Source of the DNA: Yuukianura sp. NJ FZ-2021
Lineage: Eukaryota
Assembly (NCBI GenBank): GCA_046563655.1
Contig: CM102290.1
Coordinates: 13,330,001 to 13,394,000 of the forward strand
Length of the DNA: 64,000 nucleotides
Reading direction: 5' to 3'
The translations under genes were made by a program, and so were the position numbers. Of the stretch, positions 1 to 60,089 are shown in pieces (positions within the stretch are counted from its first letter, which is position 1; each line of letters begins with the position of its first letter). The notes below the pieces were generated by a model. The model had not been told where the DNA came from and did no database searches. It saw nothing but the letters and a program-made list of their open reading frames with translations.

Positions 1-48
1 ATACGAAACGAAGCGTGAACAAAAATAAGACAAAATCGGGTTGAGTTA

Positions 49-1286
49 TTAACCTGTTTTGCAATAGTCAAATACGTCCTTGAACTCGTCACCAAGGCAA
101 TGAAATCCTTTCAGTTTCTGTTGATATTCCCCATCTAAGCAAATCCAATCCGACCTGGCATCGCAAACAAGTTGGTTGTCTTCATGATCTTCCTGTTCTC
201 GCCCAACCCGGACAGTAGACCGAGTCGAGTCCAGCAGAACTTTGAAAACGTTTTCTGGCAAGTAAGTCAAATTTCTGTTTCCCTCCAGATTGACCTCTGC
301 ATATGGACTGATCCCTTCAAAGCATCCAGGGGACAGCAACTCTGATGAAATTTGATTTGATGCCAAATTAAGTAATGTGAGAGTTGGCTGATAGGCAAAT
401 GGACTTAGCCCAATTTCCTTGACATCCGTGGAATCAAATTCAATCGTCTCCAGATATCGCAGACCTTTGAATGCATTATCCACAATTGTGGAAATTCCAT
501 GTGAAAAAAATGACAGATATTTCAAATTTGTAAAACTTCTGATGAAGGGATAAACATTGTTGGATCGACCATGTTGAATAACGATAGTCGTTGTGTACTG
601 GTGTGTGCTTGGAAATGCATCACTATTGATACTGAGGTGTTGAGTACTGCTGAGAATGAACTGAATTGTTCCAAATTTGAGTCCAGTCATCACATTTGCT
701 GGAATTGTGACTTCGTAGGCGGAGGGGCTGGAGCTTATCGTTAATTCCTCAAATATTGGGTTTGTTCCTGAAGCTTCAGATATTTGATCAAACATTTTCT
801 TGTAGTCCGTCCCTGTGGAAACTGTGCAATTGACAGTTCGCTCAAACTCGGCATTCTGTTCGCATATGCACTCCACCGGAAACGATTCTGAAGGAGGACA
901 TTCTCCACCCAAGGTTTCTATAGCAACAAAATAGCATTAAGAGGTTAAGCAATAAGTCCCGCTTTCAGAAAATCTCTCCCCAAACTTTTTTTTCACCCAA
1001 GTTTCACCCAGACTTGTTTTGTGCAAAAATGTAAATGTTTGCACCAAACTTAACGTTCAAAATGAATGAAAAAAATTCGGTTTCCAAAAATCGCCCAGGA
1101 AACTAGACTTGCCGTGATTGTCTTTTCATTTTTGCAATTTTGGGGGAATAAAAAATAAAAAGCGACTTATTGCCTAACTTGTTAAAGAAAAAACTATTTT
1201 CTCGTTAACGAACCTTGTTGTCCACCAGCTGAAACTTTTAGCACAGGAGCCAATAATACCAATAGGAACAATTGTAGCCGTTGCAT
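49..1286 (-). CDS. Secreted leucine-rich repeat protein (~313 aa), 2 exons (1286-1214, 917-49)
   Basis: Exon 1 encodes a signal peptide (MQRLQLFLLVLLAPVLKVSA). It joins in frame to ORF 49..912, which has LRR motifs (LKYLSF, LTLLNLASNQI, VNLEGNRNL) and Cys-rich caps. The only intron is a TIR element. Confidence 0.85.
910..1217 (-). mobile_element. CAAGG-TIR element forming intron 918-1213 of the LRR gene
   Basis: Termini caaggttt...gaaccttg; 9-bp TSD ttctccacc (901-909) / ttgtccacc (1218-1226); on the minus strand CAAG|GTTCGT ... GCTATAG|AAACCTTG. The interior aligns with copies at 6076 and 7134. Confidence 0.92.
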
Positions 1287-2458
1287 AATTGACTTCTCAA
1301 ATTTATATTTTGCACTTGAAATTCTGATTTAAATTTAAATTTCGTTTTGCCTCACGATTTTAGCAGCTTACTTTTCTGAACCTTACTCCAAATAAAACCA
1401 GCAAACTAATCATGCACTTTTAAAGGTTACTTTTGGATCCGTATTACATCAGCAAATATAAATAATCACATCATACACGTTTTCTATCTAAAACTAATCT
1501 TGATCACTACTTGAATTGGAGTAAGTGTATTGTTTTTAACAAAACAAGGAACAATGGTTTTCAAATTTTTGAGTGATTTCTGGCTTTTTACTGATGTCAC
1601 CTGTTATGCAATCTGGGTTCGAAGTCGGTAACTTACGTCATGTAGTCATGTTGTAACTTACCGTCATACATTACGTAACTTTCAAAAGGGTTTTGTAAGT
1701 TACTAGTTTTATCATACGTACTTATGTTAGTTACGTAACTTATGTATTTTTGGTGAAAAATACCGTAAACTTCGAACACCCTGTTTGAAATACAAATTTA
1801 GACACATATGAAAACATTCAGTTTTTCAAAATCATTTTTTCCATGTTCTACTAAAACTTTTTGGCAACTTCTTCCATTAGGTTATTAGACAACATTTAAA
1901 AAAAAACTGTTAACTTCAAGAAACATGTCAACGGTCTAAGGCGACTGGAATTTTTTTTTACAAATTTGAAAAGTGTCTTTTCAAAATAGGCAAATTATAA
2001 CTGATCTTCTGTTTTAAACAGTGACAATGCAGTGTAAAACTCAACAAAAGATCGGGATTCACCGTAAATTGGTTAGCAGAAACAGAACTGGATCCACCCC
2101 TAAATTAAGTGCATGGTTCTTGCATGACGAAAGGATGACCACCGTAATTGTTCAAATTAAACGCGTGGGTGAAAGCAAATCACGTCATTCGGCTCTCAAG
2201 CGGAGAAAAGGACTGTTTGATGTTCCAAAATGACAATTCCACCCTCTTCAAAATCCCGTTCTTAACTTTTCAGTCTTTTTAAGACTGAAGTCTTTTTAAT
2301 TTTGTTTTGAAAAATGTGACAAATTTTATACATGTTGAATTCATCTCCTCCCTCCTTGGATTCAGCTTCAATTAGGAAACTAGAAATACAGTAACTTACA
2401 CTGTAGTTCAGAGCTCAATATTGTAGTGGTGTTTAGTTGGACAAATTCTGAACGAACC

Positions 2459-2716
2459 CAAGGTTTGTTGACTTTGAATTTCTTTAACAGGTTGAGTAAT
2501 ACCTCATGTTTTTTCAATTTTGCACAAAAACAGTGTCATTCATTTCATGGTATCGTAGTCATAACAAAAAACAGCTGAATTTTCTAGATTTTACTACAAA
2601 TTTTTGGCAATTTTTGTTTGGATTGGAACCAAAATTGGTACCATTTTTTTTTGTCAACAAGGAAGGTAGTACTCAACCTGTTAAAGAATATTCATTTTCG
2701 TTGTCAAGGAACCTTG
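2459..2716 (+). mobile_element. CAAGG-TIR element, non-coding copy
   Basis: caaggtttgttgac...gttgtcaaggaaccttg, subterminal ttaacaggtt/aacctgttaa; degenerate 9-bp TSD gaacgaacc/gaacatacc. Confidence 0.8.
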
Positions 2717-5082
2717 GAACATACCCAAATTACGTCATCTCAATTCTAAAATATTTTGACAAAATGAACTAAAACGTTTTTAGCAACATTGTTGCTATAT
2801 TTAAGATTAGAGGTATGTATATCATATGCATGTGCTAACTATGCCACAAAGGTAATGTATTGGCTTAGGTAGAAATTGACAAATTGAAAAGCAAAGAGCC
2901 CCAAAACATAGATTCCATAGTGAGAAATTTACGCTACATACAGAATCAATGTAAAATTAGAAGTCAGAAGGGAAAGAAGCGAGGGACCGGAACCAAAAGT
3001 TCCAATGAAAGCATCGCTTCCTCAACATCTTTTATTCTTCATGTCCAATCTGCATCAGACAGGCTTTCATTTCACTTCTACATAAATTCCCACGGACACT
3101 TCAAAACGCTTTCCCAAATACCGAAATTAGTAATTGTTTTCGTACTGTTCCACAATCAATCTTGAAGATTGATTTTGAAGTGCTAGTTGTTCCAAACCGC
3201 ACTAAACTTTTTTCTGTGTATTCAATTGACATTGTACTATTGTCAAAAATTGCCGCAGTATTTCATTTGTCAACGGAATTTACAAAGAACGACCTAAAAA
3301 TCTTAGAGGCCAATCGAATTGCGAAGTTGTTTTTACGTTTCTACGAAAAGAAGTTGCATTTTTTCAGGTTTCTTACGCTTCCCAGTTGCATTTCTTGGTC
3401 GAGAAGAAACACAGTGTCAGTTTCTGCGTTGATTTCGAATACTAAATCATTCTCCTTATATTTATTGATGTTTACTAGAATCACTCAAAAATATTTGTAG
3501 TAAGCAACGCTTCTGCGTCGATTTTATCATCAGAAGGTGAGCAATTTAATTCCATTTGTAATAGAACACGAGTTTGTAAATAATTGTTTTCATATTTAAC
3601 AAATTGTGGTAGAAAAAAATACACACAAAATCTAAAAATTTTTTTTGTACTCAAAAGCATTAGTAATACATGTGATACATGTATACTACATGTCTAATAC
3701 ACGTGAAAAATTTCTTTTCAAATTCAAGCTGTGCGCTTCCGCTACTTGCTTATGCTCGGTTTGTATCCGATTAATTTTTGTAACACTCAACTGCACACTT
3801 CTTTAAAGTCATTTGTCGTCATTATAGTATTTAATAATACGATCCATTGAACAATAAGGCGTACATCGCAGGTTAGCTATTGTTTTTGCTCTACCGTGTC
3901 TAATAGATACTAAAAATTTATGTACAAAAGTACATGGAATTAAACTTGTTAAATGGCCATGGGCAAAGGAAACGGACGGGAAGTTTCTACAAGTGGAATT
4001 TTAACATTTCTCATTCTCATTAACATTTCAAAAATAGAAGGGGGCACTCTTCCCATAAAAAAATTTTTTTTTCATTTTTTGTCCCAAATCGATTAAAAAG
4101 TGTTTCTCACATTATAAAACATGAAATGAACAAAAAAAAAAAACTTTTTGTGAAAATTTCAAAATGGACTCAGAATTCTTCGTATCCGAAAAATAAACGT
4201 TTTTTTTTTCTTCCTTTTCAAATTTTTTGACGTTTCAAGCTTATTTCCAACCACTTACAAAAAAAAAATTTTTTTTATTGGCAGGGTCCCCTTTTGGCAT
4301 TTTTGAATCAAAAAAAATTTTTTTTTTCACTTTTTGTTCCAAACCGATTTAAAAGTGATTCTCACACTATAAAACCTGAAATGATTCTTCTATGGAAATT
4401 GGAACGCGTCGGTAATGGAGCATTTAGTGTACACTAACTTTTCAGGAATATTTAGAGGCTGGGGTTTGAATTGTTATTTGCACGCTTTTCACTTTGAAAT
4501 TAAAAAAAGCAATGCTACTGAACTTTATTGACTCGATTTCTGATGGTTTTCTTTTTAATTGTATCAGCAATAGCTGTGTCACGATCAAACCGAAAGAATA
4601 AACCATTTCATGAGCATCTCACCACAAAGCTTTTCCTTTTCTTTTACGGAATACAAAGCAAACCGTACGATCAAGTGAACTTCAATGAAAAATTGGTTCT
4701 CCATTTGCGTTTTTGTCGTAACGCAGTTTCAGAAAGTTTTAAGGATTCTACCAAGCAGTTTCAAATGCTGTCTTAAAAAAGGATAATAAAATTGGAAGCG
4801 CTTTTTTGTTGCCATTACTCGGCGCCTCAACATGGATGAATTAAGAACTTTGAAATAGGAAAAGTTAAATGTAATGGAAGTTAGTAATTCTTTGTTCTGT
4901 TTTGGACGCTCCGAAATTTACCATGCATAGCGTAGCGTAACCAACCTCAACATATGTCAATACATTCTGTACGGTTTTGAATGTTCCACCATTTTGGTTT
5001 TGGTGTTCAGAAAGAATGAGAAGAATCAATTTGTCATCACATGTTACCGTAGATTTCCAACTAGTAACCCAGGGGTGTACTA

Positions 5083-5540
5083 CAGTAGAGACTCTCAAAT
5101 TGTAACTCCCTTTTTACTTTTATGGCGGAACACCGCAAAACTGAAGTACTAAACTTGAAGCCAGTCAACTGCTGACACTTTGGGTTGTCCCAAGGTTCGT
5201 AGAAAAACAAAACTTTCTTTCTACACCAGGTTGTCCAATAACTCCATGTTTTGAGAATTGTTAAAAAATTCGCAAAATATTTCCCCCGTTACTTGTCTAT
5301 GGTAATTATTTATATGTTGTGTAGTGTTGTGTAGTGTCCTAATGGAAATTACAGGGAAAAAATTATTTTTGCAAGATTTTTCAAAATCCCGAGTAATTGG
5401 GCAACCTGTTGTAGGAATACATTTGGGTTCTTAAGGAACCTTGGGTTGTCCTATACGATAGCTGGGATGTAATCCGTTTGCGGTAAATGTTAATCAAAAC
5501 AAACCAATCACAATGAGTTGCAATTCGAGTGGATCTACTG
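5083..5540. mobile_element. CAGTA-type MITE (Tc1/mariner/pogo-like, TA TSD) interrupted by a CAAGG element
   Basis: ta-cagtagagactctcaaattgtaactc...gagttgcaattcgagtggatctactg-ta; ~197 bp after removing the insert, similar in size to the copies at 28363, 30129 and 32947. Confidence 0.8.
5191..5443 (+). mobile_element. CAAGG-TIR element, 8-bp TSD subfamily
   Basis: caaggttcgt...ttaaggaaccttg; TSD ggttgtcc (5183-5190 / 5444-5451); subterminal ctacaccaggttgtccaataactc shared with the copy at 59869. Confidence 0.85.
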
Positions 5541-5619
5541 TATTTGGAAATCTACGGTAATCTAAAAGAAGTTAAATCCAAAGTTCTTAGTCACCGTATC
5601 TGTTTATTTTCTGTTGAAG

Positions 5620-8600
5620 ATGGTGGTGATTCTACAACAAACAACAACGGATAACGGAAAACGATTTGTGTCAACACTCGTCGAGGACCAACAAGGCACA
5701 GTAACGACGAGTCGATTGGCGGGAAATTTCAACAGCACTTTGACTAATTCAGTGTCCGAGCAGAGCGCAATTTACAAACAAAGAATTGACAGTTTATTTG
5801 GATGCCCAAAGGGTCCACCTCCAACTACAATCGTCACCACAGCAACTCCATTCAGAAAAACGTTTAATCTGCCCAAATTTCTGCCGTTAACGAGCATGTC
5901 AAGCATTAAGGCCGACATTGTTACCTCAGAAGACGAAGGTTATCAACGAATTGACGAAGATGAAGTTAATTCATCTCTGCTTCCGGATTCTCTGAACTTT
6001 GACACCGGGGTATCCAGAACTAACTTTCCAGATTCTAGTCCTTGGAGGAACAGAACTTACTGTAACATGACCAGCCAAGGTTCGTAAACAAGAAAATAGT
6101 CTTTTGCTTTAACTGGTTAGGCGATAAGTCGCTTTTTTATTTTTTCATCCCAAAATGTCAATAATAAAAAGACAATCACGGCTAGTCTCATTCCCTGGAC
6201 AATTTTTGTAAATCAAATTTTTTTCATTCATTTTGAACGTTCAGTTTAGTACAAACGTTTACATTTTTGCACAAAAAGGGTGATAAACCACTCTGTGTGA
6301 AGAAAAAGTTTGGGAGAGATTTTCAGAAAGCGGGAGTTATTGCCTAACCTGTTAAAGAAATTATATTTTGTTGCTATAGGAACCTTGATGACCAGCAGCC
6401 ATTTTGCGACTGATATTCGGCGACAACTGGACGATGAAGTGAAACTTCCAATTTCATCTAACGGAATTCTTCAGTTTCCAGCACAATACTTGGGGTCCGT
6501 TGGATTGCAAGGGGCGACCGCCACTTTGCAGGATCTGCAAAGTCCCCTGCGATCTTTGTACTTAAACTTTTTAAAAAACAGGAACATTTCCTCCGGTCAA
6601 CTGTCTATAGCTTCAGAGGGACTTCAGTTTGACTGTAAAACTCTACGCCTAATCAGTCCGTTTTCGACAATTTCTGTTTGGGCGGCTATTAAATTTGTTG
6701 TCCGCGGTGATCCGCCTATGGAATGTGCCTTTATGCCACTCATTTCCGATCCGGAAGGACAAGACAAGCGAAGACTTTTTGGAAAAATGGATTCTGACCT
6801 TGGACATGCCTATTTGACTTCCTTGAGAAGTGCGAACCTAACGGGATTCCGAAATCCGCCGATCTTTGCCTGTGTGACACGACAAGGAGTGCCTCAACGG
6901 TCCGAATGTGTTGGATTTACATGCAAGTCGGCTGAAGATGCTATCGTTATCGCTGCAAATTTGTATCAACATCTATTAGTCAATGAACTGAAGACACACA
7001 AGGAAGGAGAAAGTGGCTACGGCAGTTTGACCAACACTTCTCCGATGACAACCAATCAAAATTCTCCAAACAGCAGCAGTCGAGAAGAAGTCAACCGTCC
7101 ATTTTCTTCAGCATCTTCTCTATTGACTCCAACCAAGGTTCGTAAACAAGAAAATAGTTTTTTCCTTAACAGGTTAGGCAACAATTCCCGTTTTCTATTT
7201 TTTTCCTCCAAAATTTCAAATACAAAAAGACAATCACGACAAGTCTCGTTTCCTGGGCAATTTTTGTAAATCGAATTTTTTCCATTCCACTCATTTTGAA
7301 CGTTCAGTTTGGTACAAACGTTTACATTTTTGTACAAAAAACAGCGATAAACAACACTGGGTGAAACTTGGGTAAAAAAAAAGTTTGGGGAGAGATTTTC
7401 TGAAAGTGGGACTTATTGCCTAACCTGTTAAAGAAAAATATTTCGTTGCTATAGGAACCTTGGACTCCAACTAATGCTTCCGGAAGCACATCTTTTGAGT
7501 CTCGGAAGCCAGACAAGATTAAAGACGCAGCACCTCCTTTGCGACCTCCGCGTCGTCATAGAAACGACGCAGCATCGAGCCGAGGATGTTCGAAGGAATA
7601 CAATTCTGACGACTCTTGTTCCGTTGTTCTCAAGGTGCCAATCCAGAGAAGAAAGTCGTTCAAAACTTACAGTCATCGCTACCAGCGTTCGAATCCCGCC
7701 AAGCTCAAAAAACGTGTCAAAATTTCAACGCCACCAGACCATGGACCTTCTACTGACACAATTGAACGAATCTTGGACAAGCTGGTACATCCAAGAAGCA
7801 GGTCACTCAATGACCTCAAACCTTCTTATAAAAAGTTAATTTTAAAGTTAGCTTTGATTTTAACCCACGATCATCGGTCTAAAAACAAAGAAAGTCCACG
7901 GAAACGACACGGTCGGAATACAAACAAACCGGCAGTGTCCAAGTTACGCAACCAAAGAGAAGCAGAACAAGTTGGAAATCTAGGTAAACCATTGGGCAAA
8001 ATGGCGCTAGGAAAAGGCGGAGCTTCACCATTGCGGACTAATCCGGGGACAGTATCTGCTAATCCTATGGTCAAAGGAGAAATAGCAGGTCAGAGTTCAA
8101 GGTCAACCAAAAGTCGGCATGATTTGTCAATTTGCAGTGGATGTGTCTGTAACAATTGCTCAGACAAATGCTACTGTTCTTTACCGACGAATACTTGCAA
8201 GTCTGCGGGTTCGTCATCTGCGAGCCAAGGTTTGTAAAACAAGAAGATAATTTTTTTTCTTCAACAGGTTAGGCAGTAACTCGAACTTTTTAAATTTTGT
8301 TAAAAAATAAGCATAACTTAGTGCATCGTGCCTTCCAATATCTATAATCATTGCCATATGGCAATGATTTATAAGAAATCAACTGGGATTGGAGGAAAGT
8401 TGGAGGAAAAAATTGTTTGAATTCGAGATTTTTCGAAAACAAGACTTGTTGCTTAACCTGTTAAACAATGACTATTTCGTTGCTGTAGGAACCTTGTCTG
8501 CGAGCAGTACTCCATGTCGACGGGATGGTGGCAGTATCCAGTCAAGCAAGAAATTAGGACTGTTGAAGCCAAGGGACACTGGTTGTGGTTACATGTGTTA

Positions 8601-11098
8601 CGAAACGGAGAGTTGCGCAGAGAGTGAGAAATGTTACTGTTCTCTCCAAGGTGTCAAATCCAATGGTCTCAAAGTGTACAACATCAATTTGGACACAGAG
8701 ACTTCCGATACAGACACAAACTCATATGACCTACAGTCATTCAATCACAGTTCAACAATTCCCAACATTCATTGTAATGACATTGCGGGTCAGCGGGGTC
8801 AAGGGTCAACCCCCATTAAAATCCTGGCGTACAATCCAGGAAGACGACATTCCAGTGACTCTCAAGTGTCAAGGGAGATGAGTGGACTTGTACATAGACA
8901 AAATTCAAATGGAAATGGACCGCCGTCTTCCAAAACGAAAAATGAAACTACTCTGGTAAAGTCAACTTTGAATTTCAGTTTCATTTCGAAATTTTAATAA
9001 TTATGCAGTCCAAAAATTTCAAGATTTTCAAAAACTAAAAATGTTGGGGAAGAACTAGGTTAATACACGACAAATCAGAACGGTTCTGCATCAATTCAAC
9101 TTGAGAGCCACACGTTTTCCCAACTGCAGCCTTGAAATACATTTTGTGAAATGATTTACTTTCAGTTTTGCTTTCGTTTTTTGAAGTACCGTAAAACTTC
9201 TAATAATCGTCGGGTCTCTATGATACTCCGCGGGGTTCAACTCAGACTTAGAATTGAACGAGGGGATAAATGTTGAGAGTTTGAATAAACGGCCGGACGT
9301 TTATTAGGAGTTTTACGGTACAAAACATAGCCATAGGTTGCTATAGAACTCATTATTTATAATAATGCGCTAACAGGTTATGCCATAACTCCATTTAAAA
9401 AAAAACACGAAAAAAACAACAACTTTTGTACCAATTTTGTTGATTTTCACAATAATCTTTTGAATTTTTTTAATTTTCATCTTAGTGAGTCATAGTGTTT
9501 CTACAGAAGGACTTTTGGAAAAAGTAAGGATTAGGCTAACAAATTCACTACAGTGCATTTTCCTTTTTTATGGAAATTTAAAAAATTCCAGAATATTGAT
9601 TTTTAAAAACAGCATCACACCTTCTAACTTTCTACAGAAGGACTTTTGGAAAAAGTCAGGATTAGGCTAACAAATTCACTACAGTGCATTTTCCTTTTTT
9701 ATGGAAATTTAAAAAATTCCAGAATATTGATTTTTAAAAACAGCATCACACCTTCTAACTTTCTACAGAAGGACTTTTGGAAAAAGTCAGGATTAGGCTA
9801 ACAAATTCACTACAGTGCATTTTCCTTTTTTATGGAAATTTAAAAAATTCCAGAATATTGATTTTTAAAAACAGCATCACACCTTCTAACTTTCTACAGA
9901 AGGACTTTTGGAAAAAGTCAGGATTAGGCTAACAAATTCACTACAGTGCATTTTCCTTTTTTATGGAAATTTAAAAAATTCCAGAATATTGATTTTTAAA
10001 AACAGCATCACACCTTCTAACTTTCTACAGAAGGACTTTTGGAAAAAGTCAGGATTAGGCTAACAAATTCACTACAGTGCATTTTCCTTTTTTATGGAAA
10101 TTTAAAAAATTCCAGAATATTGATTTTTAAAAACAGCATCACACCTTCTAACTTTCTACAGAAGGACTTTTGGAAAAAGTCAGGATTAGGCTAACAAATT
10201 CACTACAGTGCATTTTCCTTTTTTATGGAAATTTAAAAAATTCCAGAATATTGATTTTTAAAAACAGCATCACACCTTCTAACTTTCTACAGAAGAACTT
10301 TTGAAAAAAGTCAGGATTAGGCTAACAAATTCACTACAGTGCATTTTCCTTTTTTATGGAAATTTAAAAAATTCCAGAATATTGATTTATAAAAACAGCA
10401 TCACACCTTCTAACTTTCTACAGAAGGACTTTTGGAAAAAGTCAGGATTAGGCTAACAAATTCACTACAGTGCATTTTCCTTTTTTTATGGAAATATTAA
10501 ACGTTTGAAACGGACAGACCGACAGTACTTTTTACAAATTAGCACCTTCAATTCTAATCAACAACTCGAAGTTATTTTCTTGGCAACGGCATAGGCCCTT
10601 CTTCGTCTAAACCCCATAATTATAGGTTTGTAAATTCCTTTCATCGTTAAATTCCAGGAAGATGAAATGCATCCTAAAGGTCGAAGTTCACCAAGCCGGC
10701 GGCAGCGTAAGAAAGTTCTTTTGCTGAGTGATTGCTCAACGTCGTCCAGAGAAGACTTGTTGATGGGCCATGACGATTGTTCAGCACAACGTCAGTATAA
10801 CAGACCCAGCAGAGTCCTTGGTCACATTCCAGAGGATGACGATTGTAGCCTTACTTTCCCAACGGACAATTCCATCCACTCAGTTCAAGTGCTGGACATG
10901 AAGAAAACGGCAGAAATTGAAGCAATGTTTACAACTCTCAACATTGGGCAAAACCGTACCGTAGTCGATGGAAATCCAAGAATTGGGAGAGATCAGGAGG
11001 TTGTTCCTATACGCAGAAAATCATGCGCTGCACTCAAAACTGTTCGCTACTCTTCAGTTACAAGTGACTTTCAAACGTCTTTAGGTTATCTTCCATGA
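5620..11098 (+). CDS. PTB/PID-domain protein (~966 aa); exons 5620-6079, 6380-7137, 7455-8229, 8489-8955, 10658-11098
   Basis: Exons join in frame (2901 nt). PTB-like core FPAQYLGSV...WAAIKFV...ECVGFTCKSAEDAIVIAANLYQ, Cys motifs (SDKCYCS, SEKCYCS), C-terminus SLGYLP. Confidence 0.8.
6076..6387 (+). mobile_element. CAAGG-TIR element forming intron 6080-6379
   Basis: Perfect 9-bp TSD atgaccagc (6067-6075 / 6388-6396); CAAG|GTTCGT donor; CTAAC at 6344-6348; GCTATAG|GAACCTTG acceptor; spliced product MTS-QGTL-MTS. Confidence 0.95.
7134..7462 (+). mobile_element. CAAGG-TIR element forming intron 7138-7454
   Basis: Perfect 9-bp TSD gactccaac (7125-7133 / 7463-7471); same splice signals as the 6076 copy; spliced product LTPT-KEPW-TPT continues into the RPPRRHRN frame. 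Confidence 0.95.
8226..8496 (+). mobile_element. CAAGG-TIR element (divergent interior) forming intron 8230-8488
   Basis: Perfect 9-bp TSD tctgcgagc (8217-8225 / 8497-8505); CAAG|GTTTGT ... GCTGTAG|GAACCTTG; spliced product SAS-QGTL-SAS. Confidence 0.93.
9189..9318. mobile_element. TA-flanked MITE (CCGTAAAACT...AGTTTTACGG)
   Basis: Terminal inverted repeat ccgtaaaacttctaataa / ttattaggagttttacgg with TA on both sides, in an intron. Confidence 0.75.
9332..9475 (+). mobile_element. Left-end fragment of a CAAGG/CATAGG element
   Basis: Starts cataggtt; ataatgcgctaacaggttatgccataactcca...caattttgttgattttcacaataa aligns with the copy at 31974; no right TIR found. Confidence 0.6.
9498..10494. repeat. 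131-bp tandem repeat, ~7.6 near-identical copies, intronic
   Basis: ctacagaagg/ctacagaaga recurs at 9501, 9632, 9763, 9894, 10025, 10156, 10287 and 10418. Confidence 0.97.
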
Positions 11099-15431: not shown

Positions 15432-16939
15432 ATGAACTCCGGGCGACGTGTTGTCGTGACTGGTCTTGGACTAGTGACACCAGTCGGCACTGGAGTGGAT
15501 TTCGCATGGCAACAGATCATCAACAAGAAAACGGGAATAAGAGCACTCAAAGGCAAAGGATACGAGAAACTGCCATGTCGAATAGGAGGCATGGTCCCCA
15601 GAGTCCCAAATACGGAAGGTTGGTTGTTAATTGATCATAAAAATATTGAATACGTTGCATTATCGCCTTATTTTTTTAGGGAACTTGGACTTGGATCAGA
15701 AATTCAGCGAGGCCGATCGACGATCTTCATCCGTTGCTACGCTGTTTGCACTCGTTGCGGCAGAGGAGGCTGTCAGATGTAGTAAATTGAACCCAGCGAC
15801 CAAGACTGATGATCAACTGTGTCGTATTGGAGTTGAAATTGGCATGGGACTACCGGATTTACAAGATGTCCAAGATACTGGGAAAGTCCTGAACGAAAAC
15901 GGCTACAATCGCGTATCACCCTACTTTATTCCAAGAATACTTCCTAACTTAGCAGCAGGACAGATCAGCATGAAGTATGGATTCCAAGTATGATATCAAG
16001 CTGCTAGCAAGCGGTGTAACTCAGGATGATTGACAACGTTTCACTTACTTAATTTTCATTTTATTTCAAAGGGACCAAATCACTGTACCTCCACAGCTTG
16101 TGCTACAGGAGCCCACAGCATTGGTGACTCTTTTAATTTTATCCGAAACGGATACGCTGATGTCATGATTTGCGGTGGCACTGAAGCCTGCATCAATCCT
16201 CTTTCAATTGCCACGTTTTGCCGTCTTAGAGCGCTGTCAACAAAGTTCAATGCCGATCCAGAGAGAGCTTCCAGGCCTTTTGACTCCAGCCGAGATGGGT
16301 TCGTAATGGGAGAAGGCGCTGGAGTGTTGATACTGGAGGAGCTCCAGCATGCCATCGCCCGTAATGCCAACATTTATGGCGAAGTTCTGGGATATGGCTT
16401 ATCGGGTGATGCCCATCACCTTACTGCTGCCCGTGAAGATGGAAAAGGTGCTTACAGAGCTATGAAACAGGCACTGGACATGGCTGGAGTAAGTCCTACA
16501 CAAGTATCCTATGTCAACTGTCATGCCACTTCAACACCTATAGGAGATCGTGCTGAAATCACCGCCCTGAGGAAACTTTACGATTCACCTAATGTAAGAC
16601 CACAATCGTTTTAAATTCTTTCAAAAACGTTGCTCCGAAACTAATTTTTCTCAACTTCAGCTCAATGGAGTTGCAATTTCTTCAACCAAGGGGAGCCATG
16701 GCCATTTGTTAGGAGCAGCAGGCGCAGTAGAATCGATCTTAACAATACTGGCTTGCCATACTGGAGTGATACCACCTTCGTGCAACATACTCAGCCTTGA
16801 CGAAGAGTTTAGAAATCTAAACATCATAACTGATGCTAACTATCAAGTCAATACCCAAACACCAATCATAGCACTCAAAAATTCATTTGGTTTTGGAGGA
16901 ACAAATGCTAGTCTTTGTTTTTCGTCTTTCCGTTCCTGA
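15432..16939 (+). CDS. OXSM: 3-oxoacyl-ACP synthase (KAS II type, mitochondrial FAS), 4 exons
   Basis: [26 protein letters not shown]...[35 protein letters not shown]. Confidence 0.95.
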
Positions 16940-17062: not shown

Positions 17063-20496
<3,434 letters not shown>

Positions 20497-24806: not shown

Positions 24807-27800
24807 ATGAGGAATTACTTGTCACGATGTTGGCCTCAATTGCTATGGTTTCTGGTACTTGTCAACGCTCAGCAAAGGGAAAATACGTTTAGGACTCCAT
24901 TCGGAACGTCACGAGAAGCCAACAGTGTAAATGCACCATTCGTTCCGAATTTTGTACCCCAGGATGAATCCAACTTCGGCACTAATACCGGTGGAAACTT
25001 TATTCCTCGGGATCGAGATTTTAACAATTTTGACAACTCAAGAGACGTGCCATTGTTTCCAGTGACACAACGTAATACAAACGGGTTTACCAACTTTGGT
25101 ACTACTCCGAATCGAAATTTTGGTTTGGGTAGTAATCAAAGTCCACGATTAGACTTTGGTGACGGACAATATCCGTTTACAAGTCCAGAAGAAAAGGAAT
25201 GTCCGCGAGGCTGGGACACGTTTCGACAAAGTTGCTACCGATTTGTCCGGTCTCCGATACACAAATGGGAAGATGCTAAACGAAACTGTCAGGTATTTAG
25301 GACAAGATGGAATGAAAGATGGATAAGAATTACTATTAAACTGGATTTCTTGTGTTGTTGCAGGCTTACGGAAACGGAGCTGACCTGCTTAGTGTTAACA
25401 CCATTGAAGAACATACTTGGATTTCTAGGAAACTGACTTCAATTGACCCTCAGCATCGTCAGTGGTACATGTCTGGTAGACAAACTGCTCCTGGAAATTG
25501 GGTAAACGGCGATTCATCGCATTTGTCCACATTAGATCAAGTATTTCTCCAGGATCAACCGTCGGTTGTATCCAATGTATACAATAACTACCTCTCATAC
25601 AGGTAACCCTGTCGTCATTTTGGTTTCGGTTTTAAACACAAGTCGATTAACAAAGTTTTTCCCGATTTTAGTTACTCGGAACGGAGAAAGTTGTGGGGAC
25701 TTCTTAAGGTATCTGGAGAAGATCTGCTCTTGTATATCTGCGAAATTCCATTGGCCCTTGTACCTTACATTGACAAAAGCCTTGAAGACAGAAATTTTGA
25801 ATATGGAATTGAAGTCGAAGATGTACGAAAGATCCCGAGAGGACCCTATTTCATTCAAGAACCGAAGAGTACTGTGTTCGATCTCTCCAGGAACACTCAA
25901 AGTGCCTATGTGTCCTTGAGGTAAGGATTTGAATTAGAACAAGTATTTATTTATACTAAAAAATAAAAAAAATTTTGATTGTGAAGCTGTTTGGCGGATG
26001 GATGGCCAGCACCGACTTATGAATGGTACAAGGAAGAGTACATCAATCAAACACTTTCTGCCAAGTACTTGGATCCACTACAAAACTCAAAGTATACCAT
26101 CAGTGGAGGCATGCTCATCATCGACTCGCCTCAACAAATTGATGACCGTGGAAATTATCACTGTGTTGCATCCAATGTCTTCGGTTCAATCATTTCCGAA
26201 ACCGTTTCAATCTCTTTTGGATACATCGGAGAATTTATTGAATCTCGGGATGCTGAAGTTGCGAGTCAGTATTGGGGAAAGGCCATCTTTTGTGATCCGC
26301 CAAATCATTTCCCACGTAAGGATTTACCGAAAAATCGCTTAATTTAAACCAGAATGCAGATATTTTTTTTTACGTTTTTTTCACAATCCTAGGTGTGCTG
26401 TACTCCTGGTCTCGACGATACTTTCCGAATTTCGTGGAAGAAGACAAACGTGTATTTGTGTCATATGATGGAAACTTGTACATTTCGTCGGTTGAAGTTA
26501 GTGACAAAGACGAGTACATTTGTCATGTCCAGAATACGGTTGCCAGTAACGGCCGGACTGGTCCAACTTTTTCACTTCAAGTTATTCCAGATTGTAATGA
26601 ATGATCGACTATTCCATGTACTCTATGTATTCAGAATTGTACTGAAACGTTTTTGTTTGCCTAACAGCTAACTACCAGCAGCTGAAATTTCCAAACAACT
26701 TTCCAAAGTCATTTCCAGAGTCTCCGGCTGCTGGAGAAGACGTTCGTTTGGAATGTGTTGCTTTTGGATAGTAAGTTTTTGTTTATACAGTAGACCCTCT
26801 CATTGCGAAACCTTTAGCTCCGCCTCCCCTGAAGGTGGGAAAGCGTTAAACTTAAATTTTTGAAAGGATTGCTCGCAACATGTCTCATGCTTATTATTAA
26901 TTTTTGATTTTTTTCCGCTTAGTCCCGTGCCATCTTACAATTGGACTCGGAAGGGAGCCCCACTTCCTCGAAATGCTGTCCTTTCAAACTATAATCGAGT
27001 CTTAACTATTGCAAACGTTCAAGTGGAGGATCAAGGAGAATACATTTGTCATGCTGCCAACAACCGCCTGTCTACTGAAGACAGTGTCACCCTCAGTATC
27101 CAAGGTTTGAATTTTCTGAAAAAGAAAATGTTTAGTAGGTTTCGCGCAAGTATTAACGTCAAATTATTATTGAACTTTCTTAGCTGCTCCGAATTTCACA
27201 ATTCCACTCGGGGACAGGCACATGGACGTTGGAGACAATCTAACGTGGACATGCGAAGCTTTTGGAATCCCGGACGTATCGTATCAGTGGTACAAGAATG
27301 CAAAGCTCTTGACCCCAGAAGGACTCTTCCATGAGTTTGGTCCGCGATATGTTATGCGGGACAATGTACTGAACATCTACTCATTAGATGCCGAACGGGA
27401 TGCTGGAATGTATCAATGCAGAGCAAATAACTCCCTGACTGCCAAATTCTCTACCGGGCAACTTAGAATTCTTAGTAAGAAACTCTAACATGATTTTCTG
27501 TTTATTACAAACCTATACTAACTAACCATGCGTGATGTTTTTAGCAATTCGGCCGAGTTTTAAGAAGCGACCGTTAGCAACGGAAACGCTTGCTGCTGAG
27601 AATGGAAATGTTACGATCAAATGTGAACCGGAAGCTGCTCCACGTCCATCTTTTGTCTGGCGGAAGGACGGAAACAGAATTGGAGCCGAAGGGCGGCGTC
27701 GAATTCTGCCAAATGGAAGTTTACTTATCAATCCAGTTTCGAGAGAAGACGTAGGAATCTACACATGCGTTGCCAAAAATATTCTCGGAAGTGATGAAAG

Positions 27801-31973: not shown

Positions 31974-32253
31974 CAAGGTTTATAGGTTTATAGCGCCCAT
32001 TTATAATGCACTAACAGGTTATACCATAACTCCAATTTTCTTTTACAAATACGAAGAAAAACAACTTTTGCATCAATTTTGTTGATTTTCACAATAAATC
32101 TTTTGAATTTTTACGTTGCTGAGTATACTTTTGATTTTGAATTGCCAACACAATGGAACCGTGTGAGATGTGCGGTTCAAAAAAATTGGAAAAAGGAGTT
32201 ATGGTATAACCTGTTAAGAAAAAACAAACACAATTTGAATTGAAACAACCTCG
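31974..32253. mobile_element. CAAGG-TIR element, non-coding copy lacking an acceptor AG
   Basis: caaggttt...aacctcg; subterminal taacaggttataccataactcc / ggagttatggtataacctgtta; 9-bp TSD ccactgaac/ccaccgaac. Confidence 0.8.
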
Positions 32254-32946
32254 CCACCGAACTTAGACCAAAAAAACTTCAGTTTATACGTTTTTTTTAT
32301 TGAAGTGTCTCGCTTACTTAATCTTAATAGTATGTTAGTAACCAAACGGTGGACAATAATCCTAAAACACTGCATATTGGACAGTGACTCTTCACCTTTA
32401 AAAAGAGACGTTTCTGAAGAAACAGTTAAAAATTTATAATAATTATTCAATAATACTTAATTTAAACAAAGTATTAAACAACAGGTTTGAGACTTTTTTT
32501 TATACCTCAAGTCTCAATCTGGAATTCTCAAATACTTTGAGAAATCAGGAACTACTGTAAAACTTGATAGCTTGTGCTGAGGTGTTCAATAAATTAATTC
32601 GTTCAAATTAGCGTAAGTTGGGATATCGTAGTAACAAATGTGTTTTAAATTAATTGAGTAGTATCAAAATTACAAATATAGTAGTTGAATACGTGGAGTA
32701 AATAAAGTTGTTTCACTTCCATTCCCAATATCATTTTCTCCCCAAGTTATTATAATTGACATAATCAGAAACTAATTCTAATTCACAATTGATAACAACT
32801 AAGAAGGCTATAATAATTTAACAATCTGAACTTGGACGGAAACTGAAGTTGGTACACAATGGGCATTCTGCTAACTTCGGAAAACAAAAAGTTCGCTATT
32901 AGTTTCCGTCCCTAATCGGTACACTCTGCGTGATAAACGTTTAGTA

Positions 32947-33141
32947 CAGTAAATCCTCTCAAATCGCAACTTTCTTGGCTAGAAACTTAAGCTGTTGGGA
33001 GGGAGATGAACCTTACACAAATCAACGATTGATGTTCTGGGTGTATTCCAATAACACTGATGCAGTCTACGGAGAAACTTTACGGTAAGTGCCAATCAAA
33101 CTAACCAATCACAGGAAGTTTCCATTTGAGAGAATCTACTG
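32947..33141. mobile_element. CAGTA-type MITE
   Basis: ta-cagtaaatcctctcaaat...atttgagagaatctactg-ta. Confidence 0.8.
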
Positions 33142-33241
33142 TAATACCCTACTGATTTCTGAATTTCATAATTAAAGCACATTGTGTGCTACTCTGAATA
33201 AATAGTGAAGTTCTTGATACGCTGTTTCCTGAGGTAAGATG

Positions 33242-36200
33242 CTAATCCAGGATGACAATCTCGTCACAGAACATGGATTCTGGAGAGGTGGGGGTAGTGT
33301 CTGGAAGTGGTGAGAAGATGATCTCGTCATCATCAGGTGCCAGTGGATCCTTCAAGCACAATAACATCCACGCCTCCACCTTTGACAAAAAATCCCCAAA
33401 TATTAGCTCAACAGTTTCCAGTATTCCAGTTTTTGTTCTACATTGTACTTATACATACCTTTCGGTCCATCGTAGCGTTCTTTGGCTCAGCTTGTACAAA
33501 CTTCTCAGGAACAAAAAGCTCACCATGATCTACTTCAACATGAAGCTTGAAAGAATTCATTGTCCAGGAACGATTCCCACAAACTTTGCAGGTATATCTG
33601 TAACAGAAATGCAAGTACTAAAATGAAAAGACAAAGTTAGTAACAAAAGTAAATAAATCAAATACCGATGGTAGTTGAGATGTTGACGCAAATGGGTCCT
33701 CATATTTTCCGCAGATTTGGTTCTGTACGTGCCACACTGACAACAGGCATACAGAGACGGTATTTTTGGCAAAGACGTAGACGGCAAAGTTTGTTTTCGC
33801 CTGTTGGCTGGTGATGGTTTTAACTTTGTAGGTGTTTTGGGATTCGGTTGAATTGATTTCACTGGTGATGATGCTTTGGTCACTACAGTCTCAGGAACCA
33901 CATTGACTTCGTTCTCATGCAAGTAGTATATTCCACGAAGATGATCGCGTGAATTCACTCGTCGCCAGATCGGTAGTCGAAAGTTTTCGTCTCCCAGCTC
34001 AGTCCTGGATATTCACAATTCAGAATTGAAATAACAAGAAAAAATTTCATTTTTTTAACAAATTCTGTTTACCGAGAGAAGAAAACCAAGAAACGACCTC
34101 CTTCGCCTTCAGGCTTCCAGCACTTTTTTGACGTCACATGCTTCCCTAGTTGAAAGATGCTGTCCGAATGAAATGTGCAAGAGTCACACATGAATTGGGA
34201 CTTGACTTTGTGAATTGAACGAGCATGGTCCTTCGCCACCGTCCAGTTTGACAAGTTCAACTTGCACGTTAGGCATCTCCACTGCCCTGAACCTTTTGTA
34301 CCCTCATCAGTCCCAGTACCGCTGTAAATATCCAGAATCATAAGGTTCTAGTTAAGTTAAGTCCAAAAATTAAGAAAGCGAAAAGCGAACACTAAACTAA
34401 AAATACATACCGTTTACTAGCACCAGCTTCGTCTTCAGTGCCGCGAATTACAAAGTGATAAGGTCGCAGGCCTGGATGCTTGTCGACCAAATGCTTGTCC
34501 ATGAAATTGGTACGAATAGTGATGAAATCACAGTGTGGACATTTGAGTAACTTTGCTCCATGCAATTTGAGATGAGTGCCTAATTTATCCACGGGGACTG
34601 TGTAGAGAGGGTTTGATCCTACAAAAAAAAAACACAAATTATTACGTAACAATTTGCAACATTTTAAATGAATGTAAAAATGCGTCTTCTTACGTGTACC
34701 ATCCAACAATTGACAATGAGGGCACATGTATGTGTCGTATTCAGAATGAAGGGCTTTCATATGTGCTCTGAGCATCGAATCGTCCACTGTGATTTGAGCA
34801 CAACTTGGTACGCTACACACGTATCTGAACTGAGCTTCAACAAACTGCGGCAGTGTTTCTTTGGCTGTCGCAGAAACAACTCTGAAAGTAAAAACAACAG
34901 TAAACACCTTAAATTTCGTGACCTAAGGAACACAATCACGCAAGTCAGTATTTAAACTTACGCCTTAGCATTATGTGTACTCCCAGCCCAGTTCGTCATT
35001 TTGTCAAACATCATCTCTTTCCTTTCCAACCAAGGAACTGAATTGACCGTAGCTTGAGCAGGTACAAGTGTAGTTGAACCTTCTTCCTCAGCCCATTTGT
35101 GGAGATTCAAATGCCGTGTCATGTTAGTTCGTACTTTGGTGGAGTAGGAGCAAAGAGCACAGTGTACTTCTGACCTGTGTGTCCAAACAGATAGAATTAC
35201 ATTGTTAAACTCTGTTAAAGATACTGCTTAAGTTATGAATTAGCATTTGACTAAACTTACAACAACGTGCTGGAAGGCGGAATGTCATCGATTTCATTAG
35301 GATGAAACTGTATGCGTGGAACATAAACCAATGGATTCTTCTGAATAAGGTTGAAATCAACTGGATTTGACAGTATGTCTTTCGGGTACCAAAGCCCATC
35401 ACACGATTTCGGTAAGTTGCAGTGAGTACTTTTGAAAATCATTGTGACGGCACTGTACTTGTGATAAGACTGTAAAGCAGAATAAGTTAGGATTAGAAAA
35501 TTCAAACTGTTCGTCACATTCACAATATTACTGAAGTACAATTTTACCTTCAAATGTTTTTTCATCTCAGTAGCATTACGGCCTTTGTATGAACAAAGAG
35601 CACACCAATTGTTGGCTTTCCCATGAAGATTGATGTGTTCAAAGAACGAGGCTGGAGTTAGGTAACGCCTTCCACAGTGTGGACAAACATGACCAATCTC
35701 TGGGTTGAAGAATTTGCATGACATGTGATGATGCACTTTCAGCAATTGCAAAGTGAGGCTAGAAAATTCACAACCTATATTTGCGCACCGGTACAAATCC
35801 GTCCCTGAAGAAAAAAAAACAAATAAATAAAGTTAGTACTGTCTTTAGTATTGATTTTTTTAAATACTAGAATTAAATACTAGAATACAAAAAAAATTAG
35901 ATATTGAGAAATTAGACAACCTTTTTAAGAAATATAATTCGGTTGTCAAGGAACCTTGCTTACCTTCGAGATCAACCATCAAGCCAATGTCAGAATGTGG
36001 ACTTGCTGGACAGCTATGACTAGTAGATGGCGGATTACTAACAGGAGTTTGGCTGTGAACCGAAGCACTAGGTGTTAGGACCGTGGATGAAATGGAACGT
36101 GGACTGGCCAACGGCGTTTGAGGAGAACGTGTGCTTCCAGCAGCAGCAACGCTATTTGAAACCGACTGCACAACTTCTTCTGTAATTTCATATTTCTGTG

Positions 36201-41861: not shown

Positions 41862-42805
41862 TCTGATTACGATGTCATTAGATGTTCAGCAGAATCATTC
41901 GAAATTGGTGATCTTATGGCAAATCAATCAGAAAATCTGTAAAATAATCATCCAGTCATAAGAATTAAAAGCAATCCAAACTTGTCATGCAGTGAGGACA
42001 TGTACTACGTACAGTCTATGAATAAAACGAATCTCCAAAATCGACTATTTGTCGTTTCAGTATTGCACCTATAAGGCGTGAGATGGATTCCAAACGTAAT
42101 TAATGATCATTTAACCAGTTGACAGGATTGAAACGTGGTCATTTACGTTAACGGGTATCCTAAGTTCGTTATCCGGACTGCTACGAATTAAAGGCCTGGC
42201 GTACCGTATACCGTTCGTTTCCAGACACCTACGAAAGTGAACGTTGAGAGAAAGTACTGGCGAGTGATGACTTGGAGATTTTGCGAGTTAATTGATGAAT
42301 ACTGTTTATATTCAATATGGAATTGGTAATTTCTTAACTGGGATTCGGTGAATTATAAGACGAAGTAGAGCCATTCCCTTGTTCTCTTTCTCCTTACAAT
42401 TAAAAGGGAAAGATGGGTTACATAGAAAGAGAGAGTATAATCTAAATATTTCCAATAAAAGTGCTCTCTTCTCTCAGGCCCACTTTAGACACTAAAGTGG
42501 GGCAATTCGAAACTTATTTCAAAAAACAAAGGATGGTTTCGGATAAGCGTTGCCAAACCGGCCCAGCGCCATTTGTTTGTTTGTATATTCTCCGGCCCAC
42601 TTAATAACGATATAAAACGTTTTAAATTCGTTGTTTTTTATCACAAATGTGCAACTTGTGTGAAAATGTACAAATGGTTTGTATGCGCTGCACAAATTCC
42701 TTTCGGAATTGTGCATTGTATACAAACCGTGTGGGCGACGTCGAAACTGAAAGAAAACATTAAAATGGAGAATTTTTGATAATAAAATTACCGTTAACCT
42801 CGACC

Positions 42806-59868: not shown

Positions 59869-60089
59869 CAAGGCTCCTCGACAACCGAATTGTATTTCCT
59901 ACAACCGGTTGTCCAATAACTCAGGATTTGCAAAAATTTTGCTTGAAACAATTTTCTTCCCCCAATTCAAATTGCTGTACATAAAAAAAATTACCATAGG
60001 AAAAAAGATTTTCAAATTTTTTTAAAGTGAAAGGCATCGAGTTATTGGACAACCTGGTGTAGAACAAAATTTTCTGTTTACGAACCTTG
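59869..60089 (-). mobile_element. CAAGG-TIR element, 8-bp TSD subfamily, in the putative Mnt intron
   Basis: Minus strand caaggttcgtaaacagaaaattttgttctacaccaggttgtccaataactc...gtcgaggagccttg; TSD attcaatt/atccaatt. Confidence 0.85.

Follow-up and report, generated by a model that had tools for sequence, protein, structure and literature searches.

A MITE-type element family with introner-like features in the coding exons of a springtail-like genome

We analyzed a stretch of 64,000 nucleotides (64 kb; contig CM102290.1, positions 13,330,001 to 13,394,000, assembly GCA_046563655.1, deposited as Yuukianura sp. NJ FZ-2021), hereafter the window, in which short transposon-like elements interrupt two neighboring genes, one encoding a PID-domain protein on the plus strand and the other a leucine-rich-repeat (LRR) protein on the minus strand. 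With a probability that we put at roughly three in four, these elements belong to a family of introners of the miniature inverted-repeat transposable element (MITE) type in a springtail-like genome, whose terminal repeats would supply the splice signals and whose removal would leave a 21-nt in-frame scar. The family is present in multiple copies at unrelated loci, its exonic copies coincide with whole predicted introns, and its positions in the PID-domain gene are recent gains.

The mechanism that we propose starts from high-copy, non-autonomous cut-and-paste MITEs of 221–329 bp, with terminal inverted repeats (TIRs) of about 60 nt and a 9-bp target-site duplication (TSD), which would be active now or would have been so recently. 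In some subfamilies, differences of a few bases between the two terminal repeats would create splice signals: in the left arm a 5′ splice site, CAAG/GTTYGT (here and below a slash marks the splice junction), and in the right arm a branch-like CTAAC motif about 31 nt before the AG, a pyrimidine-rich stretch and TAG/RAACCTTG. Upon insertion into an exon in the sense orientation, the spliceosome would remove all but 4 + 8 bases of such an element, and the message would gain 21 nt (7 codons), including the 9-bp duplication, with the frame kept in any phase and with element bases that are free of stops. The insertion would thus be tolerated, giving rise to a new intron.

Predicted splice signals and reading frames of the exonic elements

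Four elements lie in protein-coding sequence, each in the sense orientation of its host gene, and all four begin with CAAGGTT and end with AACCTTG. E1 (910..1217, minus strand, 308 bp) interrupts the coding region of the LRR gene, with a predicted intron at 1213..918 (296 nt). The other three interrupt exons of the PID-domain gene on the plus strand: E4 (6076..6387, 312 bp; predicted intron 6080-6379, 300 nt), E5 (7134..7462, 329 bp; predicted intron 7138-7454, 317 nt) and E6 (8226..8496, 271 bp, with a different internal sequence; predicted intron 8230-8488, 259 nt). E4, E5 and E6 are flanked by perfect 9-bp duplications (ATGACCAGC, GACTCCAAC and TCTGCGAGC, respectively), and those around E1 (901-909 and 1218-1226) differ at one of the 9 positions. 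The putative donor reads CAAG/GTTCGT in three of the elements and CAAG/GTTTGT in one, and the putative acceptor reads GCTATAG/ in three and GCTGTAG/ in one, followed in each case by RAACCTTG. In the 64-kb window, CAAGGTTYGT occurs 7 times against 0.40 expected, and AGRAACCTTG 7 times against 0.45 expected, a count reached in 0 of 100 shuffles for either motif; both numbers exceed what chance would give.

Splicing the PID-domain gene (5620..8958) in silico at 6079^6380, 7137^7455 and 8229^8489 joins exons 5620-6079, 6380-7137, 7455-8229 and 8489-8958 into a single open frame of 821 codons from the ATG at 5620. The gene probably continues downstream of 8958: the frame ends at CTG/GTAAAG (8955-8997) and the orthologues are about 100-250 residues longer, which makes one or more further exons beyond an ordinary intron likely. 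In the LRR gene (52..1286, minus strand), the junction 1214^917 joins a 24-codon signal-peptide exon (1286..1214, with its ATG at 1286) to the LRR exon (917..52), which holds a 295-codon frame with LRR_5 and LRR_8 domains. Without splicing, translation in the upstream frame would reach a stop codon after 9, 133, 9 and 21 nt of the four elements, respectively.

For each exonic element we listed all GT/AG pairs that keep both frames open. There are 9, 7, 22 and 8 such pairs per element, and only the pair at +4 and -8 lies at homologous positions in all four. The scar left by this pair consists of 4 + 8 element nucleotides and the 9-bp duplication, that is, 21 nt or 7 codons, so that the frame is preserved whatever the phase of insertion. 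Whichever of the three frames is read, the 12 bases contributed by the element hold no stop, the lone risk being that, in one phase, an A that follows completes a TGA. The existence of other frame-keeping pairs would also allow the elements to be removed through other or several splice sites, or inefficiently, with a scar that is not always 21 nt; a GTAAAC or GTAAAA donor at +8 in E4 and E6, used with AG sites in the downstream duplication, is one example. We hold this to be distinctly unlikely, given that no pair other than (+4, -8) is shared by all four elements and that the -8 acceptor alone is preceded by a pyrimidine-rich stretch and CTAAC in every exonic copy.

The signals are not symmetrical, and a few base differences between the terminal repeats make the element directional. 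The left arm reads AAG/GTTCGT or AAG/GTTTGT, with a G at +5, where the reverse complement of the right arm would read GTTCCT; the right arm has a pyrimidine-rich stretch and TAG/, and the left arm, once reverse-complemented, lacks an AG at this place. In the right repeat, a motif that reads CTAAC or TTAAC, about 31 nt upstream of the AG, is a probable branch point at a normal distance. The TAG acceptor is found in all four exonic copies, versus none of the four full non-coding copies of the family in the window, which have AAG, AAG, GAG or no AG at this position; a right-end fragment has AAG. The associated Fisher p of 0.029 (0.008 with the fragment included) is descriptive only, because the copies fall into subfamilies, are not independent and are few.

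These four elements had been proposed in an earlier reading of the window made from its letters alone (hereafter the sequence-only reading). Its coordinates are exact (271-329 bp in length), and the CAAGGTT and AACCTTG bounds, the sense orientation in both genes, the donor 4 nt inside the left end and the acceptor 8 nt inside the right end are all as it described them. Splicing restores the frame in each of the four cases and stops are met without it, as it had also claimed; the frame-restoring GT and AG, both lying within the element, agree with its view that the splice sites come from the element and not from the TSD. Its statement that all four elements have 9-bp TSDs needs an amendment, in that three pairs are perfect and the E1 pair carries a mismatch that it did not mention.

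Gain of the predicted introns and mobility of the elements

The best relatives of exon 2 of the PID-domain gene are proteins of Allacma fusca, Orchesella dallaii and Folsomia candida (53-59% identity, 82-87% query cover), and two of these springtail relatives bear the UniRef label "PID domain-containing"; beetle and amphipod proteins follow at 35-39%. An exhaustive search of representative proteins, in a library clustered at 50%, returned the same top matches, with no identity above 60%. The protein collections yielded no protein of the same species (best match 59-60%), where the clustering of the representative library at 50% could hide one. Judged by the relatives of this one gene, the host is most likely a springtail or a close relative. 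The alignment with other springtails has conserved blocks in all four exons, including a near-invariant C-terminal block in exon 4.

We compared the gene with its orthologues on two related metagenome contigs, both of which lack introns at all three window sites. The first (L001) has an uninterrupted frame of 927 codons, to which window residues 1-784 align in one tblastn segment. In the second (L002), a single ordinary intron (GTAAGT...TTGCAG, 133 nt) separates ISDP from EGQDK, at a place where the window gene is continuous. A gene that is intron-less in one related locus, and that has a single intron elsewhere in the second, thus has three element-made predicted introns in the window. At site 1, three springtail proteins are gapped by 7-9 residues exactly at the seven extra residues of the window protein; around sites 2 and 3 conservation is poor, and the signal at the protein level is less clear there. 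The extra residues follow one pattern, namely three residues, four residues from the element and the same three residues repeated. By these alignments, the three predicted introns of the PID-domain gene are demonstrably gains, absent from the related loci.

Contigs of four public DNA runs from two studies (X1-X4) were aligned to positions 1-9300 of the window; X2 and X4 represent the same sample, X3 belongs to the other study, and one run may be the window's own source. In all four runs, the summed depth over the elements was about 10- to 275-fold that of their flanks, a ratio that is not a copy number. In X1, depth was 55,142 over 2481-2790 and 14,988 over 7131-7440, with about 100-435 over unique bins. 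X1 contigs break at the exact element ends (39 and 51 of them at 2458/2459, 32 at 2716/2717 and 33 at 7134) and run on into unrelated sequence, with a consensus agreement of about 0.4. Such breaks, placed exactly at the ends and followed by differing flanks, mark the element ends and point to many insertion sites.

One insertion, E4, is still polymorphic. A contig of X4 (record 28, 1590 nt) covers 5223-6066 and then 6388-7160; the 321 nt that it skips equal the 312-nt element plus one 9-nt duplication, which is the structure of an empty site. The filled junctions of E4 are present in X2 (record 15), and records 22 and 23 of X3 cross both with 0 mismatches. A different haplotype or individual, or a closely related lineage within the same sample, may be the source of the empty-site contig. 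Diverged contigs of X4 also span both E1 junctions (records 25 and 26) and the right E5 junction (record 29, with 48 element bases), showing that these insertions are shared, older and not brand new. The right E6 junction is spanned by X1 record 8; on the diverged X4 contigs, records 29 and 30 quit aligning 20 nt before and 13 nt after this element. At the left E5 junction, contigs of X3 and X4 hold merely 27 element bases, which is under the 31-letter rule, and this junction was not counted. Inside E1, at 1012-1119, contigs of X1, X3 and X4 have 28 other letters in place of 106 nt, an internal length variant of the same insertion.

The junctions also bear on whether the repeats were misplaced into exons during assembly. 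The high repetition of the family and the breaking of contigs at its ends would favor such an artefact, but contigs from runs of two studies cross both junctions of E1 and of E4, the right junction of E5 and the right junction of E6, with unique sequence on one side, making an artefact extremely improbable. We likewise consider it very improbable that the introns are old and that MITEs landed in them later. A precedent for such a landing might be seen in the fragment at 35906-35958, which lies in an apparently ordinary intron with its own GTAAG donor. At the exonic copies, however, the 9-bp duplications consist of coding sequence and the intron ends are provided by the ends of the element. The intron-less sites in both related loci and the empty E4 allele indicate gains rather than old introns, and for E4, where the empty allele is continuous coding sequence, an old intron is directly contradicted.

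Taken together, these results strengthen further parts of the sequence-only reading. That the elements form a transposon family with TIRs and TSDs is supported by the extra copies in the window and by the many-copy signal in the public runs. The recency that it proposed, with its expectation of empty sites, finds support in the absence of the plus-strand gene's three introns from the two related loci and in the empty-site allele of E4, and the animal host that it suggested agrees with springtail proteins being the closest to the interrupted gene.

Several points weigh against reading the elements as introners. Use of the element sites by the spliceosome is something that we infer from the sequence. 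Frame restoration follows automatically from the 21-nt rule and does not amount to four independent tests; the window holds only four exonic copies, and sense orientation in all four has, by itself, a p of 0.06. The LRR gene has no detectable homologues, 0 of 384 candidates reaching E <= 0.001. E1, E4 and E5, which form one subfamily, are merely 86-88% alike (MAFFT; 83% by BLAST with gaps), and are thus not the product of one very young burst. Divergence between the empty-site contig and the window is about 3% in exon 2 and about 8% upstream. The donor is off the usual consensus at +3 and +4, and the element introns, at 259-317 nt, are 3-5 times longer than the native introns that we placed (61-101 nt). 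Finally, a predicted 9-bp helix over the 5′ splice site could mask the donor and so hinder its use.

The last two of these points can be set beside the native introns and the predicted folds. Within the conserved genes of the window, native introns were placed at sites that offer few frame-keeping candidates: 15619-15679 (aag/GTTGGT, 61 nt), in a ketoacyl-synthase gene; 15988-16071 (GTATGA, 84 nt), the sole candidate; 16594-16660 (GTAAGA, 67 nt); 27475-27544 (GTAAGA, 70 nt), again the sole candidate; and 20157..20057 (tag/GTTTGT, 101 nt), with one donor and two acceptors, in an FtsJ/Spb1 methyltransferase gene. The GTTGGT donor at 15619 and the GTTTGT donor at 20157 indicate that T at +3 is in use in this genome. 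Predicted RNA folds of E5 and E6 with their flanks have long terminal-repeat stems (z = -5.0 and -5.5), and 0 of 100 and 0 of 200 shuffles, respectively, fold as well. In the 9-bp terminal helix, the bases around the donor pair with the 3′ bases that stay in the message, and the AG falls at the edge of the helix; in this model the terminal stem may bring the two splice sites close together and help removal.

If the elements were not spliced at all, they would be ordinary MITE insertions making recent gene-breaking (null or hypomorphic) alleles, and the GT/AG sites and the 21-nt sum would be coincidental. That splicing is deduced from sequence alone leaves room for this, as do the polymorphism of E4, with an intact empty allele in the same sample, the location of 4 of the 8 full copies in non-coding DNA and a donor that is not a strong consensus site. 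It is nonetheless unlikely in our judgment: three insertions in one gene and one in its neighbor are all in the sense orientation, and both frames are otherwise intact. TAG acceptors are confined to exonic copies, and CTAAC, the pyrimidine-rich stretch and the G at +5 stand at the right distances. The LRR frame remains open even though the E1 duplication has had time to pick up a substitution, and the right E5 junction and both E1 junctions on diverged X4 contigs speak against brand-new insertions.

Further copies, transposon class and nearby repeats

BLAST of the copies against the window, together with inspection of end motifs, gave 8 full copies and 1 fragment in 64 kb, which adds 4 full copies and the fragment to the elements of the sequence-only reading; all of these additional copies, including the fragment, sit in non-coding sequence. 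E2n (2459..2716, plus strand, 258 bp) belongs to another subfamily, the one with the highest depth in the public runs, and shares only the terminal repeats of about 60 nt; its duplications match at 7 of 9 positions, and AAG stands at the acceptor position. E3n (5191..5443, plus strand, 253 bp) precedes the ATG at 5620 by about 180 nt and shares the strand of the PID-domain gene; counting the terminal G as shared makes its duplication, GGGTTGTCC, perfect, and its acceptor position also reads AAG. E7 (59869..60089, minus strand, 221 bp), with GAG at the acceptor position, has an eroded duplication and no flanking open frame on either side. E8 (31974..32253, 280 bp) is diverged and of ambiguous orientation, with the right end AACCTCG, no AG at the acceptor position and duplications CCACTGAAC and CCACCGAAC that match at 8 of 9 positions. 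Over the eight full copies, the duplications are perfect in four (one of which needs the shared terminal G), match at 8 of 9 positions in two and at 7 of 9 in one, and are eroded in one. Copies other than E1, E4 and E5 have the terminal repeats of about 60 nt in common, including a conserved subterminal motif of the AACAGGTTAGGC type, and have unrelated interiors. A single element of 3985 bp spanning 31974-35958 was considered and rejected, as its flanks differ and the end at 31974 pairs with the one at 32253.

The right-end fragment (35906..35958, plus strand; AAG/GAACCTTG) lies antisense within a candidate intron of 159 nt (35963..35805) of a large minus-strand gene, and sits 5 nt past the GTAAG donor of this host intron. 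The candidate intron could be an old one into which the family inserted, or one made by an element that has since decayed and that uses a flanking donor. On the minus strand, 34395-41885 holds long open frames of 808, 571, 251, 195, 191 and 176 codons, with no Pfam family except a weak zinc-finger match; two of the frames, 35863-38286 and 38290-38874, share one phase and have a single stop codon between them.

The inverted repeats of about 60 nt, the 9-bp duplications, the length of 221-329 bp and the lack of coding capacity are those of MITEs, that is, of class II elements with TIRs. No Pfam domain was found in frames over the elements, and no transposase domain in the 72 window frames of at least 90 codons that were scanned (of 91 such frames listed). 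Elements of the hAT superfamily have an 8-bp TSD and YARNG termini, and those of the Mutator/MuDR superfamily a TSD of about 9 bp, with a MULE transposase in the autonomous partner. The CAAGG terminus fits YARNG, but hAT was rejected because the duplication is 9 bp and not 8: in the six copies at 910-8496 the two sides have an identical ninth base, even in the one copy where it is A instead of C, which excludes a reading as 8 bp. By the ranges generally given for these groups, a 9-bp duplication fits Mutator-like or Merlin-like elements. Tm1, a Mutator/Foldback family of root-knot nematodes with mostly 9-bp TSDs, is comparable (PMC3169594) as an animal TIR family with MITE-like members, duplications mostly of this length and no clear target consensus; unlike the window family, it has repeats built of tandem 14-bp units and other termini, and is not known to have a splice function.

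Other repeats lie close to the elements. Directly downstream of the PID-domain gene, at 9498-10501, is a tandem array of a 131-bp unit (7.6 copies, 99% matches). The 140 nt that precede it (9333-9470) are about 80% similar to the start of E8 (31982-32113), and both stretches carry a subterminal CTAACAGGTTAT motif; the array may lie within a truncated relative of the same element family. Another small repeat family is probably represented at 4025-4384, where two direct repeats of 76 nt, 255 nt apart and 88% alike, occur with 48-nt inverted arms rich in A/T runs, and where the read analysis flagged 4055-4156 and 4255-4336 as repeats. At 9186-9321, an inverted repeat of 29 nt, 90% complementary and with arms 78 nt apart, resembles another miniature element.

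An Rfam scan of 1-9400 gave 3 matches at E <= 0.1, all far under the gathering scores, and thus no sign of a tRNA/SINE or known RNA origin. The terminal-repeat motif had 0 matches in IMG/VR viral contigs and 2 in prokaryote genome contigs (L003 and L004), neither with a CAAGGTT terminus or a second arm. In the former, a 4.6-kb contig of a Syntrophaceae metagenome-assembled genome, positions 579-621 match the left repeat of the element over 46 nt at 78%. We treat both as probable chance matches or stray eukaryotic DNA.

Relation to known introners and meaning of the finding

The origin of new spliceosomal introns is an old question, and introners are, to our knowledge, the only known mechanism able to give bursts of intron gain. 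Introners of Micromonas pusilla and Aureococcus anophagefferens were reportedly described by Huff, Zilberman and Roy in 2016.

Micromonas and Aureococcus introners (PMC11282704, PMC9860276) are, like the window family, short non-autonomous DNA transposons with TSDs that form an intron on insertion. They take one splice site from the TSD and leave the length of the message unchanged, whereas in the window family both sites would lie inside the element and the message would gain 21 nt. Modes of splice-site recruitment vary among introners (PMC9860276), and family 4 of Aureococcus sp. carries both splice sites and adds 12 in-frame nt, made of 4 element nt and an 8-bp TSD (PMC9860276, Fig. 2F-G), which appear as four extra residues in comparison with an isolate without the insertion. 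Compared by the description of their architecture, and not by sequence, the two families are alike in carrying both sites and in keeping element bases and the whole TSD at a multiple of three; they differ in scar length (12 nt or 4 residues versus 21 nt or 7 residues), in the terminal repeats of about 60 nt and in the host, a marine alga in one case and a hexapod-like animal in the other. With this published precedent, the window family would follow the same principle and be of a kind already known, and the novelty implied by the sequence-only reading was overstated. Euglenid non-conventional introns (PMC11282704) are also thought to be MITE-derived, with inverted repeats at their ends that pair and join the intron ends, but their junctions are non-canonical and not GT-AG, unlike the canonical GT...AG of the window elements.

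In the survey of Gozashti et al. 2022 (PMC9860276), introners were reported in 175 of 3,325 genomes and, among animals and land plants, in two groups only, both of them animals; its animal introners come from TARA metagenome-assembled genomes labeled Lepeophtheirus (copepod) and Oikopleura (Dataset S1). Gozashti et al. 2025 (PMC12130899) reported introners in the purple sea urchin and in some land plants, with more than 98% of introner hosts being aquatic, unicellular or fungi. These animal introners are, like those proposed here, recent transposon-derived introns in a metazoan, but their reported hosts are all marine and the window host groups with springtails. In those supplementary tables of both surveys that were searched (PMC9860276, PMC12130899), the rows for Allacma fusca, Folsomia candida and Orchesella cincta hold zeros, in columns whose meaning is not confirmed. 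Among the matches listed for introner literature from 2024 on, no title concerned a springtail or a hexapod, and a literature search on introners, intron gain and Collembola or springtails gave no paper linking them.

What stands out in the window is the host lineage, the density of the elements (three in one gene and one in the adjoining gene) and the contrast between exonic and non-coding subfamilies. The TAG acceptors of exonic copies, set against AAG or GAG in non-coding ones, suggest a route from an ordinary MITE to an introner. We lean slightly toward the view that a springtail lineage is gaining introns now, through a MITE sub-lineage with a complete set of splice signals that has placed three new introns in a previously intron-less gene, with filled and empty alleles segregating. 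If true, the case would give Hexapoda, and possibly land arthropods, their first introner. It would contradict the reported rule that almost all hosts are aquatic, unicellular or fungal, and would offer a test of the idea that ties introners to aquatic life and horizontal transfer. It would also provide an animal in which the birth of introns can be followed in populations, a potentially tractable system that offers insertion polymorphism, scars of seven residues legible in protein sequences and, for comparison, sister subfamilies that have or lack a good acceptor.

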